A stretch of 64,000 nt of DNA, from positions 13,260-77,259 of the forward strand of contig SUZB01000009.1 of the NCBI GenBank assembly GCA_015060115.1, in the 5' to 3' direction. Every line of letters starts with the position of its first letter. Position 1 is the first letter of the stretch. The notes under the pieces were generated by a model that worked only from the letters and a program-made list of their open reading frames with translations, made no database searches and was not told the origin of the DNA. The stretch comes from Rikenellaceae bacterium (lineage in GTDB: Bacteria > Bacteroidota > Bacteroidia > Bacteroidales > Rikenellaceae). A program made the position numbers and the translations under genes. This document shows, piece after piece, positions 3,260-63,399 of this stretch.

Positions 3260-3723
3260 TTAGTTATTAGTTGTTAGTTGTTAGAGTTTTTTAGGACCAG
3301 TAAGACCAATAGGACAAGTAGGACTATATGATACCCGACCTCGTAAGGTCCTAAGGTCTTAAGGTCCTATCGGTCTAAAAAAAACGAGAGCAAGCGTTTC
3401 GCCTGCGGGCTAAAGCCCAAGGGGCACAAGGATTCTGAGGGGTCAAAGGGGCGCATTAATAAAGAGAGTTTAGTGAAATTAGGGAATTTAGAGAAGTTAG
3501 GGAAGAGCACTACCAACATTTATCCCTAACCTCACTACACTCCTTAAACTCTCTAAACTCCCTTATAAACCTGCATCCAGTCAGCACACAGCCAATTTCT
3601 TGTCAGAAGGGGCTTAATTTGGATTATCGCAAAAGAATCCCCCAAGGGATAGTACACCTTAGTACAGCCCTTGGGGGATTACTTTTGGGATAGTTCGAAG
3701 GATGCCCCTTATCACAAGAAATT
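3260..3723. repeat. Composite intergenic mosaic: heptamer array, A, B, C and D modules
   Basis: Each module recurs in other spacers of this window (6680-7027, 11806-12227, 17845-18111, 38104-38322, 42196-42507, 53301-53749). Confidence 0.85.
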
Positions 3724-3725
3724 AA

Positions 3726-4424
3726 TTAGTCGCGGTTACCACCCAAAATACGCAACAACATTAGGAATAGGTTGATAAAATCGAGATACAAGGTGAGCGC
3801 ACCAAGAAGAGCGAGCTTATGACCACTCTCATCGGCAGTGCCATACTGCAAGAAGAGTTGCTTAAGCTTCTGGGTATCCCACGCTATAAGGCCGGTAAAG
3901 ATCACCACACCCGCATAAGTCGTTATCCAGTAGATGGTTGATGACTTAAGGAAGATATTGACAACGGTGGCGATAATAAGGCCTATAAGGAGCGTATAGA
4001 GCAGACTGCCCATACGCGAAAGGTCGAGGCGTGTGATATAGCCCACAAGGCTCATAGCGAGGAAAGTGCCCGCAGTAACAAAGAATGTGGTGGCTATGGT
4101 CTCGCCTGTATAGACGAGGAAGATGGAGGAGAATGTAACACCCGTAAGCACCGAATAGAGGATAAATAGGAGTGTTGCCGTGCCCATCGACATCTGCATA
4201 ACGCGCGCCGAGAGCCACAACACAAGGCCCAACTCCGCAAAAAGAAGAATCCATATTGATGCGGGGTTCATAAAGATATACTCAAGGATAGCGGGCGACG
4301 ATGCCACAAACCAAGCCGTAAGACCTGTTACGGCAAGGGCTGCCGCCATCTGAATATAGACGCTCTTAAACAAGCGACCTACAAGCGCATTCGAGGCGCT
4401 CTGTGCTGAAGAGAACTCAATCAT
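3726..4424 (-). CDS. Bax inhibitor-1/YccA family membrane protein
   Basis: Seven hydrophobic segments; C-terminal ALTLYLDFINLFLMLLRILG motif. Confidence 0.92.
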   Translation of the reverse strand: MIEFSSAQSASNALVGRLFKSVYIQMAAALAVTGLTAWFVASSPAILEYIFMNPASIWILLFAELGLVLWLSARVMQMSMGTATLLFILYSVLTGVTFSSIFLVYTGETIATTFFVTAGTFLAMSLVGYITRLDLSRMGSLLYTLLIGLIIATVVNIFLKSSTIYWITTYAGVVIFTGLIAWDTQKLKQLFLQYGTADESGHKLALLGALTLYLDFINLFLMLLRILGGNRD

Positions 4425-6679: not shown

Positions 6680-7027
6680 TAGTTGTTAGTTATTAGTTTT
6701 TAGTTGTTAGAGTTTTTTTTTAAGAGCAGGCGTTTCGCCTGCGGGCTAACGCCCCAAGGGGCAAAAGAAGAGCGAATTTAGAGAGATTAAGGAATTTAGA
6801 GAAGTTAGGGAGTGCGCTACCGACATTTATCCTTAAGCTCACTACACTCCTTAAACTCACTAAATTCCCTAATAAAGCACCTACGGCTCTGCACGACCCA
6901 ATTTGTTGTCAAAAGGTAGTAGATACAACGCTCGGCAAAAAAATGCGGATGGGCTGTACTTTGGCGTACTGCTCATTCGCATTTATTTTTGTTAGCGGCA
7001 GTAGATGCTGCCTTTTCACAACAAATT
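6680..7027. repeat. Composite intergenic mosaic: heptamer array, B, C and D modules
   Basis: Modules match those at 3260-3723. Confidence 0.85.
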
Positions 7028-7397
7028 AAAAGGGCATATCGTCAATCACTCCTGCACCCCCTGCCGAATAACTCTGCTGGGGCTCCTCCATAAAGGGAGG
7101 CATATCCTGCACAGGAGGCTGTGCTGCAGGCTGGAGAGGCTGTACACGCCAAGCACGAACATCGGTATACCAACGACCCTGATAGTTGCGGCTCTCGATA
7201 TCGAATGATACGGTGTACATCTCACCTACGCGGAGTGTAGCAACCTCCTGACCCTTATTCATAAAGGTTACGGCTATCTCCTTGCCATACTGCTTGTTGG
7301 GTTGCTCAAAAACAACGGTCTGACGCTCCCAAGTACCGCGTGCCGACTGACCCGACACAGGAGGGAGAATCTCAATTACTTTACCTTCAAATTCCAT
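7026..7397 (-). CDS. DUF3127 family protein (putative OB-fold ssDNA-binding protein)
   Basis: MEFEGKVIEILP...FDIESRNYQGRWYTDVRAWRV pattern; low-complexity linker and acidic C-terminus DDMPF. Confidence 0.85.
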   Translation of the reverse strand: MEFEGKVIEILPPVSGQSARGTWERQTVVFEQPNKQYGKEIAVTFMNKGQEVATLRVGEMYTVSFDIESRNYQGRWYTDVRAWRVQPLQPAAQPPVQDMPPFMEEPQQSYSAGGAGVIDDMPF

Positions 7398-11805: not shown

Positions 11806-12227
11806 AGTTGTTAGTTATTAGTTGTTAGTTGTTAGATTTTTTTAGGACCAGTAAGACGGGTAGGACAAGTAGGACAAAATGATACCCGACCTCGTAAGGT
11901 CTTAAGGTCCTACGGTCTTAATGGTCTTAAAAAAGACAACAGAGACGCAGAGACGCAGAGACGCAGAGATAACAGAGAAAGATGATAGCCGACTTCGTTG
12001 TTGTCCCTTTCGTCTCTTTCGTCTCTTTCGTCTCTTTATCCCTAACCTCACTACACTCCTTAAACTCACTAATAGATTTGCATCCAGTCAGCACTCTGCC
12101 AATTTCTTGTCAGAAGGGGCATAATTTGGCGCCGATAAAGAGAAAGAGCGGATGGGACATACTTGGCGTATTTCCCATTCGCTCTTTAGATTGAGGCGCC
12201 GAAGGATGCCCCTTATCACAAGAAATT
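11806..12227. repeat. Composite intergenic mosaic: heptamer array, A, E, half C and D modules
   Basis: A core at 11881, related core at 11984, D arms at 12101-12120 and 12208-12227. Confidence 0.85.
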
Positions 12228-12648
12228 ACGAGAAGTTCTCGGATTGTGAGGCCACCTCCTCCTCCATCTCATTCTGCATCTCCACCATCTGCACAATATC
12301 CTCGGCACGGCTGGCGCCACCCACAGTAACAACCATATTCCACTGCACCTGAATCTGCACAATGCCGTTCATCACCGACAGCGTTCCCATAATCTTGTTC
12401 TCGGGGGCGAGGATAACGACACCATCGACATCGGTATACTCGGCAAAGAACTGTGTGGCAATCACCACATCGAAGATTGAGGGTATGGTGCGAACAACGA
12501 TATTCTGCTGATGACAGCCCATCGCGAGAAGATTGTCGATAAGCGGCATAAGGTGCTCATCGGTATGCTCTTTGAAGTCGCGCACAACGATAACACCAAT
12601 ACGCATATTGGTAGCATCCAATTCGTTACGCAACATGGGCTCCATCAT
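12226..12648 (-). CDS. Degenerate lumazine synthase (RibH)-like protein, probably non-catalytic
   Basis: MRIGVIVV...NIVVRTIPSIFDV...DVDGVVIL follows the N-terminal half of the RibH fold; the GxTxH and RxGxKxGNKG motifs are absent; position next to TPR/recF/DUF721. Confidence 0.65.
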   Translation of the reverse strand: MMEPMLRNELDATNMRIGVIVVRDFKEHTDEHLMPLIDNLLAMGCHQQNIVVRTIPSIFDVVIATQFFAEYTDVDGVVILAPENKIMGTLSVMNGIVQIQVQWNMVVTVGGASRAEDIVQMVEMQNEMEEEVASQSENFS

Positions 12649-17703: not shown

Positions 17704-17844
17704 AAAGATAAATATTTGGTTAAAATTCGTTATTGCCTGCTCAGCTATAAAACTATCCAATTGTAAATTGATGTCATTTCAACTTACAAACATAGTAACA
17801 AATTTTGTTTTTTCCAAAAATTGGGTGCGATTAGGTAAGAATGG

Positions 17845-18111
17845 TTAGCTGTTAGTTATTAGTTGTTAGAGATTTTTTTAAGACGAGTAAGACAAGTAGG
17901 ACAAATAAGACATAGTATGATACCCGACCTCGTATTGGTCCTAAGGTCTTATCGTCTTAATGGTCTTAAAAACTCTCTGCGCTCCCCCCAGGAGCGCATC
18001 TAACAACTAATAACTAATAACTAACAACTAAAAAAGAGCGAATGGAATACTCAAAATATCCATTCGCTCTTATCGCTTAGAGGTCGCAATGGCCTCTTAT
18101 CACAACAAATT
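17845..18111. repeat. Composite intergenic mosaic: heptamer array, A, inverted heptamer array and half D
   Basis: A core at 17919; CTAACAA array at 18000-18031; terminator hairpin at 18034-18071; stop-adjacent arm to 18111. Confidence 0.8.
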
Positions 18112-18583
18112 ACCTTCTATTGTTCTTGGGCGCCTCCTTGCCACTGGCAGCCTGAGCCTCAGCCTTGACGCGAGCAATCTCCGACTTGGCCTGAGCTACA
18201 CGGCTCTTGTGGTCCTCAACGATAGACTTGGTCTTAGCCTTGGCAGCAGCAACCTCCTGCTTGGTGCGGGCAGACTCCTGCTTGTAGCGCTCGGTAGCCG
18301 ACTTAAGCTCGGCCTTGGCCTTAGCAACACGAGCCTTCTGCTCCTCGACAACGCGGCGATAGTTCTCCTTAACCTCCTGAAGGTCAGACTTTACAAGATT
18401 AAGACGGCTCTCGGCAGCATCAACTGTAAGACGCTCCTCCGACTTAGCCTCCTCAACAGCACGGCGCTGGTCGATAACGGTGTTGTCGTAGAGTGCCTGA
18501 GCCTCAGCGATGGTGCGAGGCGACTGTGCCGAAACGGCGCTCACTGCGAGGAGCGCAACGATAGTAAACAAGAATTTCTTCAT
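18110..18583 (-). CDS. Secreted coiled-coil protein with three ~43-aa repeats
   Basis: Signal peptide MKKFLFTIVALLAVSAVSA-Q; Ala/Lys/Glu-rich; VEEAKSE, VAKAKAE and VAQAKSE spaced 43 aa apart. Confidence 0.8.
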   Translation of the reverse strand: MKKFLFTIVALLAVSAVSAQSPRTIAEAQALYDNTVIDQRRAVEEAKSEERLTVDAAESRLNLVKSDLQEVKENYRRVVEEQKARVAKAKAELKSATERYKQESARTKQEVAAAKAKTKSIVEDHKSRVAQAKSEIARVKAEAQAASGKEAPKNNRR

Positions 18584-42157: not shown

Positions 42158-42190
42158 AAAGGTCTACTTCCGCTTTAGGAGTAGACCTTT
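42158..42190 (+). terminator. Intrinsic terminator of wza-wzc-HAD
   Basis: AAAGGTCTACTTC-N7-GGAGTAGACCTTT followed by Ts. Confidence 0.8.
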
Positions 42191-42195
42191 GATTT

Positions 42196-42507
42196 TAGTT
42201 GTTAGTTGTTAGATATTAGTTGTTAGATTTAGGACCAGTAAGACGATAAGAAAAAATTGTGATACCCGACCTCGTAAGGTCTTAAGGTCTTAAGGTCCTA
42301 AGGTCCTAAAAAAATCCTAAAGTCCTAAAGTCCTAAGGTCTTATCGGTCAAAAACAGAGAAAATTTCATAGAAAACGCAGTTAAGGCAATCAGCCCTCCT
42401 TGAATCCTCCCTGAACACACACCTAAAATAAATGACGGATGTGAGATACTCAAGTATTCCCATCCGCCATTCTAACTAAAGCTGACGCACCTATATCACA
42501 ACAGATT
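42196..42507. repeat. Composite intergenic mosaic: heptamer array, expanded A and half D
   Basis: A core at 42261 with an expanded run of GTC(C/T)TAA(G/A) units; hairpin at 42431-42471; stop-adjacent arm to 42507. Confidence 0.78.
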
Positions 42508-43210
42508 AAGATGCGATAGCGCAGTACTGGTTGTATTTGCGCATTACCTGCGACACATAACCCAAAGTCTGCTTGCTGCCGGTAAACTTACCACTCTTGA
42601 CGATGTCAAGCTCATAGTAGGCGGGATCGGCCTTGAGTTGTAGGTAGCGGCTCACATCGCCCCAAGAGTTGGGGTTGGCGCCCTCGTAACGCGCAAGGCG
42701 ACGGGCATCAAGGACATGACCGATACCGGCATTGTAGCTTGCGAGGATGATGCTCAGACGATCTTCCGTAGGCGTAGCCGCAGGAATACGGAGCATATCG
42801 GCAAGCTCGGTAAGGAGCATACCGGCGAGACGAATATTTGTCTCGGTATCGTCGATATCATCGACAGGAACATTGAAGTGGCGAGCCACAACGGGGCGAA
42901 TCTGCATAATGCCGGCTGCACCCTGGCTCGACACGAGGTTCTCAATAAAGCGCGACTCGCTATAGGCGATAGCACTCATCAAACGCCAATCCTGACCCTC
43001 CTCCTCGCCGACCTTCTGCATAATGGGGTCGAAACGCGAGATTACCCACTCCTCGACCATCTCGGCGGGTGTGGCAACGGGTGTGGGTGCTACCTCCTCT
43101 ACGGGCTCCACCTCGTGAAGCGCAACGGGGGTAGTGGCGTTACCCACTGATGATTCATAAATCGCAAGTGCTGCGACAGAAAGAATCACAAACGATACTC
43201 TTCTTAACAT
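42506..43210 (-). CDS. Lytic transglycosylase (SLT domain, MltF C-terminal-like)
   Basis: AIAYSESRF (catalytic E), GAAGIMQI, LASYNAG motifs. Confidence 0.9.
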   Translation of the reverse strand: MLRRVSFVILSVAALAIYESSVGNATTPVALHEVEPVEEVAPTPVATPAEMVEEWVISRFDPIMQKVGEEEGQDWRLMSAIAYSESRFIENLVSSQGAAGIMQIRPVVARHFNVPVDDIDDTETNIRLAGMLLTELADMLRIPAATPTEDRLSIILASYNAGIGHVLDARRLARYEGANPNSWGDVSRYLQLKADPAYYELDIVKSGKFTGSKQTLGYVSQVMRKYNQYCAIAS

Positions 43211-43252
43211 TGTTTAGTAGTTTGTGGGCTGCTAAACGGCGTGTACTCACCA

Positions 43253-45421
43253 TTAGTCGTAGAACGACCACGAGATACCAAACTTGAACATTCTTGGGTT
43301 TAGCGGGTAGCGTGCTACCTGGAAATATTCGCCATTACCGAAGAGGTTTTGGTTCAAGTGCTGGAATTTCAATAATATACGCATACGCTTCCACTTGGCC
43401 GACACAAAGGCGTCGATGTAGGGGTAGTTGCCTACCTTAACCTCGCGCTGATTGAAGAAGACCGAGAGTGCAGGGTTGTAGCTCGGAGCATAGTAGGCCG
43501 TGTTGAAACGACCGTCCAAGCCAATCTGCACACGCAACACATCGCGCACAACCCAAAACTCGTAGTAGTACGAGAGGTAGGCGCTAAGAAGTGGTACGGG
43601 AAGCACACTCTCATTGGATGAGAACTGCACCAATGCCCTATGATCCAGATGGAGTCCCTTGATACGGAAATCCTTGCGAGCGTACAAACTCGTGAGGCTC
43701 ACTGTGCCCGCGTGCTGTGCTACGCGGCTGTCATTGCCGTAATATAGCATATTGCCCATTACGCCCTGCCAAAAGCCCAACTCAAGAGCTATGTCAGGCA
43801 CTGCAAAGTTCACCTCGAAACGAGTTTCAGACTCCTTAGAGAAGGAGTTAAACCAAGTATAGTGGTTTGAGAATAGATTCTCCTGCCAGTAGCCCGGCGA
43901 GCGTAGCTCCTGACGGAACTTACCGGAGAGAATCAGGGGATGTTCGCGAATGAAGGCTCGGAGGGTAATATCGGCACCCACCGAGAGATCACCGCCACGA
44001 TAGCCAGAAGGGTGGTATTTGGCATTAACACCCCAGTCGGCATATCGTTTAATCTTACCACCCGTAGAACCATAGATATACCACGAGTGGCGCTTGTCCT
44101 TGGTCATCTTACCCGATATATAGTCTTTCAACCTGAGGTAAGAGTAGGTATGTATGTCGTAGCCGATGCCCGCATCGATAGTCGAGACTATGCCGTTGCG
44201 GTCCCACGGCTGGATTTGTACAAATAGTTTGTTCGAGAGCAGTCGCTCCGAGATAGAGTCGCGTGTAGTCTCAGGTGTGATAAACCAGTCCTCGTAGTAT
44301 TCGAGGCCATCAACCTTCACCCACTTGCCCGTCTCCTCATCGTACTCGCCACGCTCATTGGAGTAGGTAGCCCTCTTGTCGGTATAGACCTTCGACCAAG
44401 TGTTGTACTCCAACTGATGGCCGATATATACTGCCGAGAGGTCGGCAATCGAGAAGTCGTACTCGGTAACACGCTCCAAAGGTATTGCAAAGGCCTGCTT
44501 AAGGACTACGGCGTGGTTGCGATAGTGGTTGTGCGCCTCGGCCTTAGCCAGACGCATAGGCACACCTGAGGGCATCTCAAAGGTGGTATCGGCAATAGCC
44601 CACTCTCCAACAACACCACCATTCTCACGAGTGGTAATCGTATTGTTCATATAGGCGGCATGCACCGAATAACGCTTGCCCGTATGCGCCACAGCCACCG
44701 AGAGAGCGTGATTCTTGGTTCGTTGCCAGTCATAACGGCCCATCGTACTGCGGGCCTTGTAGACAACATTTGCCGAGGTCGAGGGGTTGATATTCTGCGA
44801 ATGTACCAACTCGAAGTGCTCCTCACGGTAGCGCTTCTGTCCCGACTCCAAGTACATCATATTCGTGAGTGGCTTCTTGGCGTTGTAGAATGGCACATTC
44901 TCCAAGCGTGCCGTGTAGGCATCGTAGCTTCGGGCAAACGAGAAGTCGCGATCCTGACTGCGGTCAAACCAGTTGACAGCCTGTGATGACTGGCCGAGGC
45001 CACCAAGCGCCATATCGCCAACGCCCTTGCGGTAGAAGACATAGTCGATACGCCAGTCGGCAAGCGTGGTATCCAGAGGCTCGATATTCACTCGGTTGTA
45101 GTAGCGGTCGATATGCCACTTCCAGTTAGGCAGGGCACGCACCGTGTCGTTGAAGTAGTAGGACTCCAAGGGTCGGCGGAAGCGCTTCTCCTTCTCGGTA
45201 GAGTCCGCCTGTACGCCCTCCATACCCTCTTCGCCCATCATATCCTGACCCATACCGGGAAGACCATTCATACCCATAGAGTTGTCCGTGCCAAAACCTT
45301 GGCGCTGTTGCTCACGCTGGGCACGAGCCAAAGATGCGGCATCCAACTGGGCATACGACGACAGAGGCAGCAAGATTGCCACCGCCAAAGATATGACCAT
45401 TATCAACCGCGTAAATCTCAT
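43253..45421 (-). CDS. Putative outer-membrane porin (Bacteroidetes Porin_10-like)
   Basis: Signal peptide; alternating beta-strand pattern; C-terminal YP.NPRMFKFGISWSFYD. Confidence 0.8.
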   Translation of the reverse strand: MRFTRLIMVISLAVAILLPLSSYAQLDAASLARAQREQQRQGFGTDNSMGMNGLPGMGQDMMGEEGMEGVQADSTEKEKRFRRPLESYYFNDTVRALPNWKWHIDRYYNRVNIEPLDTTLADWRIDYVFYRKGVGDMALGGLGQSSQAVNWFDRSQDRDFSFARSYDAYTARLENVPFYNAKKPLTNMMYLESGQKRYREEHFELVHSQNINPSTSANVVYKARSTMGRYDWQRTKNHALSVAVAHTGKRYSVHAAYMNNTITTRENGGVVGEWAIADTTFEMPSGVPMRLAKAEAHNHYRNHAVVLKQAFAIPLERVTEYDFSIADLSAVYIGHQLEYNTWSKVYTDKRATYSNERGEYDEETGKWVKVDGLEYYEDWFITPETTRDSISERLLSNKLFVQIQPWDRNGIVSTIDAGIGYDIHTYSYLRLKDYISGKMTKDKRHSWYIYGSTGGKIKRYADWGVNAKYHPSGYRGGDLSVGADITLRAFIREHPLILSGKFRQELRSPGYWQENLFSNHYTWFNSFSKESETRFEVNFAVPDIALELGFWQGVMGNMLYYGNDSRVAQHAGTVSLTSLYARKDFRIKGLHLDHRALVQFSSNESVLPVPLLSAYLSYYYEFWVVRDVLRVQIGLDGRFNTAYYAPSYNPALSVFFNQREVKVGNYPYIDAFVSAKWKRMRILLKFQHLNQNLFGNGEYFQVARYPLNPRMFKFGISWSFYD

Positions 45422-57808: not shown

Positions 57809-57956
57809 AGAGTAAAATATTTAGGATTTGTACCTAACTAACGCCTAAGACAGACGGGATATTGTGCGGCACAGCAAGTTGTGCTTGGCCCAAGCATTGT
57901 ATCAGCAGAGGAGGGAGTGGGCCATAAGATAGGGATTGAGCGGCGCAACTACAAAG

Positions 57957-58040
57957 AAAATACCGAGGGACTGTAACATTACAACCCTCGGTATTTTACC
58001 TTTTGGATAGACCGCAGATGCGGCTTTATCACAAGAAATT
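57957..58040 (-). terminator. rpsT terminator plus stop-adjacent D arm
   Basis: AAAATACCGAGGG...CCCTCGGTATTTT; TAATTTCTTGTGATAAAGCCGCATC begins at the stop codon. Confidence 0.8.
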
Positions 58041-58290
58041 AAAGTGCATTTACATGCAAAGCCAATGAGCTCTTCAAGTTAGCAGCCTTGTTCTTGTGGA
58101 TAATATTGGTCTTAGCCAACTTGTCCAACATTGAGCTTACCTTGGGAAGCAATGCCTCAGCAGCTGCACGCTCAGTGGTGTTACGCAATGCCTTTACAGC
58201 GTTACGAGCAGTCTTGTGATAAAGACGGTTGTGCGCACGCTTGGTAATGGTCTGACGAATTCTCTTCTTCGATGACTTGTGATTTGCCAT
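58039..58290 (-). CDS. rpsT: 30S ribosomal protein S20
   Basis: [13 protein letters not shown]...[20 protein letters not shown]. Confidence 0.98.
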
Positions 58291-62083: not shown

Positions 62084-62097
62084 CAATTTGAGTAGGT

Positions 62098-62129
62098 GGA
62101 GATGACTAAAAAGCAAATTAGTCATCTCC
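62098..62129. terminator. Bidirectional terminator-like hairpin, family G copy 3
   Basis: GGAGATGACTAA-N8-TTAGTCATCTCC. Confidence 0.75.
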
Positions 62130-62187
62130 TTTAGTTTAAGTCATTGATTTATCCGTTAGGTGCAAGCACCCACAACAGCCTTTCTTT

Positions 62188-63399
62188 CTATTGTGTTACT
62201 CTTTGTGCCCAAGCTGTGGCGCGCCAAGCCTTGGCAGTTTCGGGACAGTCGGTCTCTTGGAGAATATAGCACGACAAGCCCGAGTAGTGTTCAATAGGAA
62301 TATAGGCATCATCAGTACCTGTTACGGTAAAGAAGGTATCGGTGTTGCCCGAGTAGACCACAACATCCGAAAGAGTCTTATTGAAATTCTCCAATGTAGC
62401 ACCCGATGCAACACTCTCGACATAATCACCCAAGTCGAAATATAGATGATAGCTAAAATTGTCGTAGGGCTGAATCATACCAACATCAACAGCCTTAGCC
62501 TCATTATATACCGCCTTCATTGCATCGGCAAGGGCATCTATCTTGCTACAATCAATAAGTGCAATTGTGCCTGACGAGTCGCGATAATACTCCATATAGG
62601 CTTCACAGACCTCTTTTAGCTTATGGTCGGTGCGCTCAAAGAGCATAGGCAAGAAATCTTCATAAGGGAAGCCTGCGCCCAAAATCTCTGTTGGCGAGGC
62701 AACAACATAGTCCGCCAAGTTGCGTATATCGTATAGACACTCTATATTTGCCATCATACAGGCATCGAAGATAATATAGCGGAAATGGGTGCTGCCAAGC
62801 GCCTCCACCAACTCAGGAATCTCCATACAATCTGCATCATCCTGACCATAGAACAGAGGCTCGGCAACAGGCTCCGAGGCACGGCTACCCTCACCCAAGA
62901 GGTAGACATCATAGAGGTCGGCAGGGACCCAACCGCCACCATGCGACGACATAATAAGGCCGTAGCTATCGGCAGGCGCCTCCTCCTTCATTCGCTCGAC
63001 TACACCTCGCAAAAAATCCTTATCCACCGTAGAGGTCGATGTAGGGTACTCCTCGATAAGGCGCTGCTTAGCCATACCATCGTCGAGGTACAGCTCCGTA
63101 AGGCGAGTATAGTTGCCGCGGTCATAAAACAGAAGGATACGGCCAATGTCAGTGGGGACATCGTAGTAAGCTGTGATGATACGCTGCATGTTGGAGTCCA
63201 AAAACTCGGCAAGACCATTGTTTCCCTGCATAATAATCATTAGCGTATGGCTCTCGGTCAGAGGCCCAGGAACAGGTTGCTCTTTACCATTGTCAGGGTT
63301 GGGGGTCTCGTGAGGCTTCTCATTCTCACATGCTACAATAGCAAACGAAAGCGCTACAAACAACAAAGTAAAAAGGGTACTCTTTTTCACCATATTCAT
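62188..63399 (-). CDS. Clostripain-family (C11) cysteine peptidase lipoprotein
   Basis: Lipobox IVAC; SSHGGGW (His), IFDACMMA (Cys), VASPTEI and YFDLGDY motifs. Start is 63399 or 63393. Confidence 0.88.
   Translation of the reverse strand: MNMVKKSTLFTLLFVALSFAIVACENEKPHETPNPDNGKEQPVPGPLTESHTLMIIMQGNNGLAEFLDSNMQRIITAYYDVPTDIGRILLFYDRGNYTRLTELYLDDGMAKQRLIEEYPTSTSTVDKDFLRGVVERMKEEAPADSYGLIMSSHGGGWVPADLYDVYLLGEGSRASEPVAEPLFYGQDDADCMEIPELVEALGSTHFRYIIFDACMMANIECLYDIRNLADYVVASPTEILGAGFPYEDFLPMLFERTDHKLKEVCEAYMEYYRDSSGTIALIDCSKIDALADAMKAVYNEAKAVDVGMIQPYDNFSYHLYFDLGDYVESVASGATLENFNKTLSDVVVYSGNTDTFFTVTGTDDAYIPIEHYSGLSCYILQETDCPETAKAWRATAWAQRVTQ

Follow-up and report, generated by a model that had tools for sequence, protein, structure and literature searches.

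Unpaired copies of a stop-codon motif in Alistipes are 5' half units of a dispersed repeat, probably kept as stop codon and terminator

Six genes in the window, by which we mean the whole 64-kb stretch of DNA analysed here, end in a shared motif. With up to one mismatch allowed, TAATYTSTTGTGA matched the window six times, against a mean of 0.35 matches in shuffled sequence, and none of 100 shuffles reached six. All six matches lie on the minus strand, which is the gene strand in each case, and at gene ends; plus-strand gene ends are too few in the window for a comparison of strands, and the GC skew merely tracks the gene strand. The genes concerned are functionally unrelated and encode Bax1-I, a DUF3127 protein, a DMRL-synthase-like protein, a 157-aa repeat protein with no Pfam match, an SLT transglycosylase and ribosomal protein S20 (rpsT). 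In the last five of these, the leading TAA of the motif is the in-frame stop of a real open reading frame, whereas the Bax1-I gene (3726-4424) has its own TAA 4 nt upstream of the motif. The initial annotation had described a common 3' layout at the stops of six unrelated genes; the six unrelated gene ends stand, but the motif supplies the stop at only five of them.

Three of the copies have a mirror arm, TCTGACAASAAATT, at +114 to +117 and are referred to hereafter as full copies. They occupy, on the minus strand, 12100-12228 (5' arm, central hairpin and 3' arm TCTGACAAGAAATT), 6899-7028, which carries a G variant in both arms (TTTGTTG / CAACAAA), and 3593-3724, where the TAA of the gene starts 4 nt ahead of the TAA of the repeat with one base between them. 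Tandem stops 0-1 nt apart, made of the gene's TAA or TAG followed by the TAA of the unit, were seen in the window (3724-3728) and at L026, L039, L063 and L111, so the unit abuts the end of the reading frame even where it does not supply the stop. The remaining copies, at 18112, 42508 and 58041, have no mirror arm. The initial annotation had reported the motif at these three genes as unpaired, and the sequences that it gave for them were exact.

At rpsT, the motif TAATTTCTTGTGATA (58027-58041, minus strand) represents the 5' arm of the repeat, and its TAA (58039-58041) is the rpsT stop. It is followed on the same strand by a small local hairpin of the 5' arm (hp1; GCCGC-ATCT-GCGGT in the fold, 58011-58024), which aligns to the GCCGCAATCTGCGGC segment of full copies, and by a central hairpin (57957-57997) that together with the T-run TTTTCTTT (57953-57997 in all) is the predicted intrinsic terminator of rpsT. 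At the apex of this hairpin the GTAC..GTAC of the family has diverged to GTAA..TTAC, turning the internal apex loop of the family into an 18-bp stem with one bulge, and the hairpin is more stable in the sense than in the antisense direction (-26.7 versus -22.3 kcal/mol). At the gene for the 157-aa protein, the motif TAATTTGTTGTGATA (18098-18112, minus strand) supplies the TAA stop and precedes hp1 (AGAGG..CCTCT, 18079-18097) and a central hairpin (18035-18070) with a run of six T, the two hairpins and T-run covering 18030-18097. A mismatch of A and C that is found in the family is here an A-T pair (CCATTCGC), and a heptamer array lies directly 3' of the T-run. At the SLT gene, the stop is the TAA of a motif variant, TAATCTGTTGTGATA (42494-42508, minus strand), and the central hairpin GGCGGATGGGAATAC..CACATCCGTC with its T-run ATTTATTTT occupies 42425-42471 on the same strand, the A.C mismatch being replaced by a G-C pair.

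A strong hairpin and a T-run follow each unpaired copy, with the onset of the T-run about 37-44 nt past the stop, and the stability of the hairpins corresponded to z-scores of -3.3 to -6.0. Over the 600 nt examined at the rpsT copy, no sequence agreed with the distal consensus at more than 9 of 14 positions, which is the chance level. For the copies at 18112 and 42508 the best match was 11 of 14 and fell in heptamer arrays at +242 and +281, compared to the canonical +114 to +117. No complement of its own 5' arm was found within 120 nt past the hairpin at any of the three, whereas full copies scored 18-41 in the same test. These folds and distal-arm tests bear out the inner hairpin with a gene-sense U-tract and no distal arm that had been noted from the sequence. 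A simple ungapped terminator scanner, run on part of the stretch, did not list the hairpins at 58041 and 42508 although both lie inside that part, probably because their stems bear a bulge or a mismatch. The heptamer arrays themselves, (CTAACAA/CTAATAA)n at 17829-17873 and 42186-42230 on the minus strand, open with TCTAACAACTAATA. This sequence agrees in 11 of 14 positions with the A variant of the distal arm (TCTAACAACAAATT), from which the arrays might have arisen.

The full copies belong to a repeat family, element D of the initial annotation, with a regular layout: a TAA with the arm AATTTSTTGTGATA, a local hairpin that is specific to the subfamily, the central hairpin with its T-run, and the mirror arm. 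A scan of a species collection (one genome per species) for TAATTTSTTGTGATA returned at least 119 loci. Among the matches listed, about 40 came from Alistipes or Rikenellaceae MAGs, mostly from ruminant gut, and as read by eye nearly all of these lie at an in-frame TAA after a long open reading frame, with a distal arm at +115 to +121. Matches in other phyla, read in the same way, have short open frames and no mirror arm, and look like chance. A protein 98% identical to part of the SLT protein of the window bears the source label Alistipes sp. From these loci and the window we collected 48 full units of 128-135 nt, representing about 30 species. In 44 of 48 copies the S position of one arm agrees with that of the other (p = 2.6e-9), and the arms differ by a fixed asymmetry, GTGATA in the gene-proximal arm versus GTCAGA in the mirror arm. 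No other part of the family is as well conserved among these species as the motif, which in Alistipes always lay outside genes and in a single orientation with respect to the gene. Some units are arranged head to tail in rows. There is no target-site duplication: the unit is preceded by T, and the position that follows the 3' arm is variable (C in 19, T in 15 and others in 14 of the 48). Rfam reported only tRNAs in the window, the best matches of the repeat reaching 15-21 bits against gathering scores of at least 40, and no relevant description of such an Alistipes repeat turned up in the literature searched. This family of repeats of about 128 nt, common in gut Alistipes, seems to be undescribed.

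Units of related form were seen elsewhere. In some strains a D-type full unit that starts with TTCTTTGTTGTGATA rather than TAATTTG lies about 80 nt past the Peptidase_C11 stop (L014:6141-6275, also L016 and L020); it is absent from the window (near 62090-62190) and from others, and the spacer between Peptidase_C11 and tRNA-Pro is a strain-specific mosaic of modules throughout. At L074 (minus strand, first 320 nt) and L134, a full unit is followed by three tandem 48-nt repeats, each consisting only of the 3' arm (CCCTTCTGACAAGAAATT) and AGGTCGTGGGGCTAATTAATGTTAGATGCG. These repeats are orphan mirror arms that have multiplied on their own.

The unpaired copies of the window share more with this family than the motif. 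When the motif was excluded and nt 16-90 were aligned to full copies, the scores were 42 for rpsT (against L104:2649-2779), 30 for 18112 (against 12100-12228) and 45 for 42508 (against L063:4755-4882), with shuffled maxima of 27, 26 and 24, respectively. The alignments extend over the arm's local hairpin and the central one as far as the T-run, such that the three copies match the first 90 nt or so of the roughly 128-nt repeat. Descent from element D, as the initial annotation had supposed, is well supported by these scores. Like full members, the three have the 5' arm (T)AATTTSTTGTGAWA no more than 4 nt away from the stop, in gene orientation, and are homologous past the arm, through the hp1 region and the central hairpin. 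They have no mirror 3' arm TCTRACAASAAATT at about 115-121 nt past the stop, and the preference for folding on the opposite strand and the retained A.C mismatch that characterise full copies are not found in the halves. With the mirror arm and any residue of it absent, we regard the three as partial copies, here called halves, and not as full members.

Halves of this kind are a minority in the family. A scripted census of Alistipes sequence totalling about 369 kb counted 43 5' arms that have a partner, and sorting of the unpaired hits by hand, in which chance hits and diverged pairs were discarded, left seven clean 5' halves and about five true 3'-only orphans. The seven comprise the three in the window, the rpsT half of a sister lineage, L095 (the second unit of a row), L098 and L128. 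None of the seven retains a complement of its own arm, and in our own alignment to the nearest subfamilies, which is not a scored test, every one of the seven loses its similarity to the family no more than a few bases from the T-run. Several census units have a mirror arm that is decaying through point changes. Nowhere in the window, the species scan or the census did the motif lack other parts of the unit. The halves total only six to eight, and three of them came from a search with the exact motif, which favours young copies. Two further structures were noted. In the half at L128:6960-7010 the central hairpin has an inverted orientation with respect to the arm, its apex reading GGGATAGTAC..GTACAGCCC where the family usually has the reverse complement, GGGCTGTAC..GTACTATCCC. 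At L239:1251-1320 (also L240-L246), a 302-aa gene that lies upstream of thiD and ends in TAG is followed by a terminator, AAAAAATGCGAATGGGCAG..GTCCATTCGCATTTTTTT, whose stem is that of the family central hairpin with the A.C mismatch repaired and with neither arm; we read this arm-less hairpin as a later stage of the half-copy series.

Full copies and halves differ in the strand on which they fold best. For full units, the strand opposite the gene gives the more stable fold (mean -70.3 versus -56.0 kcal/mol; 44 of 48 copies; Wilcoxon p = 5e-9), and the central hairpin alone is antisense-favoured in 43 of 48. The fixed asymmetries account for this: besides GTGATA versus GTCAGA in the arms, the central stem contains AATGG..CCATC, whose A.C mismatch was kept in 30 of 31 type I full copies as read by eye and which, being a mismatch in the gene sense, is a G.U pair on the opposite strand. 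The long outer stem had been suspected in the initial annotation not to be an mRNA structure, and the preference of full copies for the opposite strand is in line with this. In gene-end halves the preference is reversed, the central hairpin being sense-favoured in five of six (Mann-Whitney p = 7e-5 against full copies; a first version of the comparison with fixed coordinates gave Fisher p = 1.6e-4). The mismatch is repaired in three halves and in two ways, by C to T at 18112 and L098 and by A to G at 42508; either repair yields a full pair in the mRNA sense. The number of T residues after the stem did not differ significantly between halves and full copies (p = 0.08), a comparison that is blurred by pairing of an A-run with the T-run. 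The contrast in strand preference between full copies and halves, the retained mismatch and its repairs are new here.

Variation among close strains was informative at rpsT. In eight haplotypes of the lineage of the window, the half unit from stop to T-run had 2 variable sites in 90, compared to 17 in 143 for the rest of the rpsT spacer (p = 0.012) and 6 in 249 for the rpsT coding sequence; the spacer past the T-run was five times more variable than the half unit. The rpsT half unit is kept as a whole. The motif itself had no variable site in its 15 nt, which is too short to test. The loci that encode an identical S20 protein form two lineages with about 96% identity upstream. The first has the half unit of the window and a SIMPL gene downstream. 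The second (type B) has the motif too, followed by a different half unit and, downstream, thiD with a leader; the two lineages diverge exactly after TAATTTCTTGTGATA.

The rearrangement between these lineages has some further features. A block of Peripla_BP_2, FecCD, ABC, tRNA-Glu and rpsT has different surroundings on both sides in L011/L015/L018 and in L012-L020, again in lineages about 96% identical. The downstream breakpoint of the block falls right after the 15-nt motif, and the matching junction ahead of thiD falls at a T-run. A reciprocal crossover between two motif copies was considered for this rearrangement and rejected: the other junction, upstream of thiD (L239-L246), has no motif, and the shared sequence there starts at a T-run. 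About 70 nt past the rpsT stop, the terminator loop of type B reads ACTGGAT in some strains and ATCCAAT in others (L001/L004 versus L007/L010); the latter is nearly the reverse complement of the former, as if the loop had flipped between the arms of its stem.

The motif did not follow the rpsT stop in any of 80 related loci with 63-95% protein identity, including the closest two at 95% and 93%. The relative at 95% carries another module of the same repeat mosaic, and the rpsT spacers of both close relatives are not alignable past the stop, so that an empty site is not definable there. In two metatranscriptomes, assembled RNA contigs cross the rpsT hairpin and continue into the following gene, for which read-through or DNA are possible sources; at a full copy, RNA contigs break at the repeat, and their depths sum many copies and species.

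The other two gene ends were equally changeable. The motif TAATTTGTTGTGATA at the gene for the 157-aa protein is identical in L140, L141 and L143 and absent from allele L142, which encodes an identical protein between flanks that are about 98% identical. L142 has another local hairpin and another family-like terminator, and it is homologous again at the T-run and heptamer array. In the final two Arg codons, five of six bases are different (AGAAGG versus CGCCGA; L142:1660-1675 versus 18110-18125 of the window), so the replaced tract enters the coding sequence by a few bases. At the SLT gene, the nearest relative (L224, about 95% DNA identity) has two full tandem units of another subfamily, and a relative at 79% (L232-L237) has a plain terminator, with similarity returning at the T-run. 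L238 has the same half as the window, with the variant motif TAATCTGTTGTGATA, inside a recombinant 3' segment; the motif is unchanged between the two although the neighbouring hp1 region changes. The 5' part of the L238 gene is 64-88% identical to the window (42506-43900) and its last 500 nt are 91-100% identical, a mosaic that indicates recombination within the gene. At rpsT, the 157-aa gene and the SLT gene, the motif is lineage-specific and replaceable.

Repeats with some of these properties are known from other bacteria. In REPINs, an inverted doublet of arms is the replicating unit, and REP singlets have been described as defunct remnants (Bertels and Rainey 2011, PMC3116915). The Alistipes family resembles that system in that a hairpin-forming inverted doublet replicates and single arms read as immobile remnants, in its tandem rows, in an arm that holds the most conserved word, and in the excess of inverted doublets over singlets (43 paired arms versus seven halves and about five 3'-only copies in about 369 kb). 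It differs in that the arm consensus has no GTAG or CGTC tag, GTAC being present only at the apex of the central hairpin; the unit is longer, has a third (central) hairpin and sits on stop codons in one orientation to the gene; and its remnants retain the central hairpin, re-optimised for the mRNA strand. By analogy, the halves may be to full units what REP singlets are to REPINs, with the re-tuning of the hairpin to the mRNA strand as the addition.

Host use of part of an element is known for Correia elements of Neisseria, ERIC and other MITE-like repeats, which can terminate transcription or stabilise mRNA; target-site duplications (TA in Correia) flank these elements, whose position has no fixed register to a stop codon. 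As in those families, the Alistipes repeat is small, palindromic and co-transcribed with, or ending, neighbouring genes. Unlike Correia or Tc1-like MITEs, it has inverted ends but no flanking duplication, and it folds better opposite the gene. The attC sites of integrons are imperfect palindromes right after an open reading frame, in one orientation, with conserved ends, a variable middle and unpaired bases that mark the active strand, and the Alistipes unit is alike in each of these respects, including one strand marked by fixed unpaired bases. We rejected attC identity since the arms fit neither core (RYYYAAC / GTTRRRY), and host genes such as rpsT are ordinary chromosomal genes rather than cassettes; no integrase lies nearby within the window. 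Like canonical intrinsic terminators, the halves end in a GC-containing hairpin and a gene-sense T-run at the place where the gene needs a terminator, and on the predicted fold they qualify as such. They are unlike them in that the hairpin and the preceding 40 nt are copies of a dispersed repeat and not specific to the locus.

We consider it probable that the halves are immobilised 5' parts of the repeat that have been kept as stop codon and terminator, and that the motif is not an independent 3'-UTR signal. The opposite-strand fold of full copies would be what the copying or recombination machinery reads. Half copies would have cleanly lost everything past the T-run of the central hairpin, possibly by deletion or replacement between two T-runs, that of the unit and that of the former native terminator, and would then be unable to propagate. 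The host gene would keep the half for its stop codon and for the intrinsic terminator predicted from the folds, and the central hairpin, freed of the constraints of the repeat, could be repaired to full pairing in the mRNA sense. The motif, as the terminal sequence of the repeat, would persist because it is located between stop and terminator and because the copies are young. In this form, with the unit as terminator, the co-option by the host gene that the initial annotation had suggested holds well, given hairpins tuned to the mRNA strand and an rpsT half that varies like coding DNA. Two observations sit less easily with it. The motif is unchanged in the rpsT half and at the SLT gene, and could itself be constrained; the pattern comes from small numbers (by our own estimate p is roughly 0.1-0.15 per locus), and gene conversion among many copies would produce it too. 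The clean ends at the T-run in seven of seven halves are unlike random decay, and either deletion between T-runs or the installation of terminator-ending stretches would explain them.

Installation is the basis of an alternative that we regard as unlikely: the stretch from stop to terminator may be put in place or exchanged as a single cassette, whether through template switching, through site-specific exchange at the motif or through a process defined by RNA ends, with the motif as the left junction and the T-run as the right. Halves would then be primary products rather than remnants, and full copies a further elaboration or a parallel product. The T-run boundaries of the halves, an unscored alignment result, agree with this, as do alleles at two genes that differ between the stop (or the last two codons) and the T-run within flanks that are 95-100% identical, the two half subfamilies at rpsT in sister lineages with a break right after TAATTTCTTGTGATA, and yet another subfamily at the SLT gene of the nearest relative. 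However, the arm asymmetry and A.C mismatch common to the 48 full copies from about 30 species point to full-length ancestors, and the independent, differing repairs of the mismatch are those expected of derived forms. The L142 tract extends with synonymous changes into the last two codons, which allelic recombination of diverged lineages fits better, the rearrangement between types A and B is not a reciprocal exchange at motif copies, and 3'-only fragments and point-decayed distal arms exist too. A related idea, that the moving or exchanged unit is the transcribed 3' UTR from stop to terminator end, with the 15-nt motif also serving as a rearrangement breakpoint as at rpsT, strikes us as rather unlikely.

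We give similarly little credence to a motif that is a functional cis element, selected after loss of the distal arm as a protein or sRNA site in the mRNA, a stop-codon context, or a DNA recognition site for the enzyme of the repeat, which would make gene ends landing pads. The conservation of the motif across the family suits such a role, although its place at the end of a mobile repeat explains this equally well. So do its invariance at rpsT and SLT next to a changing hp1 region, the repeated occupation of the same gene ends by different subfamilies, and the prediction that, in transcripts ending at the central hairpin, the first 9 nt or so of the motif are unpaired on average. That prediction differs among the three halves, the host genes have no function in common, and in tandem rows the nearest stop codon is over 120 nt away from the motif. 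Above all, the motif never occurs alone, and it is missing from the rpsT orthologues and from same- or similar-protein alleles of the other two genes, L142 with its identical protein and the SLT relative with its plain terminator among them. The single-stranded 3'-UTR signal acting on its own that the initial annotation had proposed is for the most part not supported, and the conservation at rpsT orthologues that it had suggested looking for was not found; this absence is one half of the outcome that it had itself named as refuting the signal.

That the halves are neutral wreckage with no present role, not yet decayed at genes that terminate elsewhere, seems very unlikely. One motif is already substituted (TAATCTG at 42508) and the rpsT apex has lost the GTAC..GTAC signature of the family, as wreckage might; but the rpsT half varies as little as coding DNA while the spacer past its T-run does not, the hairpins have been repaired toward perfect sense pairing rather than degraded, and no other hairpin with a T-run lies between the three stops and the next gene. 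DNA uptake signals, such as the DUS of Neisseria and the USS of Pasteurellaceae, often form inverted pairs that double as terminators, and they occur in both orientations and also inside genes. We rejected an uptake-type signal (for DUS in general, see PMC2397512) as extremely improbable, in spite of a short word conserved across the genus and often paired in inverted orientation around a terminator, and of a comEA-like HHH_3 gene in related loci, since the Alistipes copies are all extragenic, in a single orientation and anchored to stops, within a unit of about 128 nt that has further conserved parts.

Returning to the reading of the halves as immobilised repeat parts kept as stop and terminator, words such as this motif should be annotated as marks of gene ends and terminators and not as regulatory sites. 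A gene end in these bacteria can be in one of four states, with a plain terminator, one or more full units, a half unit as terminator, or a bare hairpin, and these states interchange between close strains. The repeat sites are hot spots where alleles replace one another and where at least one rearrangement has taken place, which matters for strain typing and assembly. The preference of full copies for folding in antisense points to a single-strand, strand-specific step in the propagation of the repeat, and strand preference offers a simple sequence test that may separate copies serving the repeat from copies serving the host. What had been a puzzling shared 3'-UTR word becomes the readable life cycle of a repeat family, and it is the family itself, together with the strand switch that would mark its domesticated copies, that holds the most interest.
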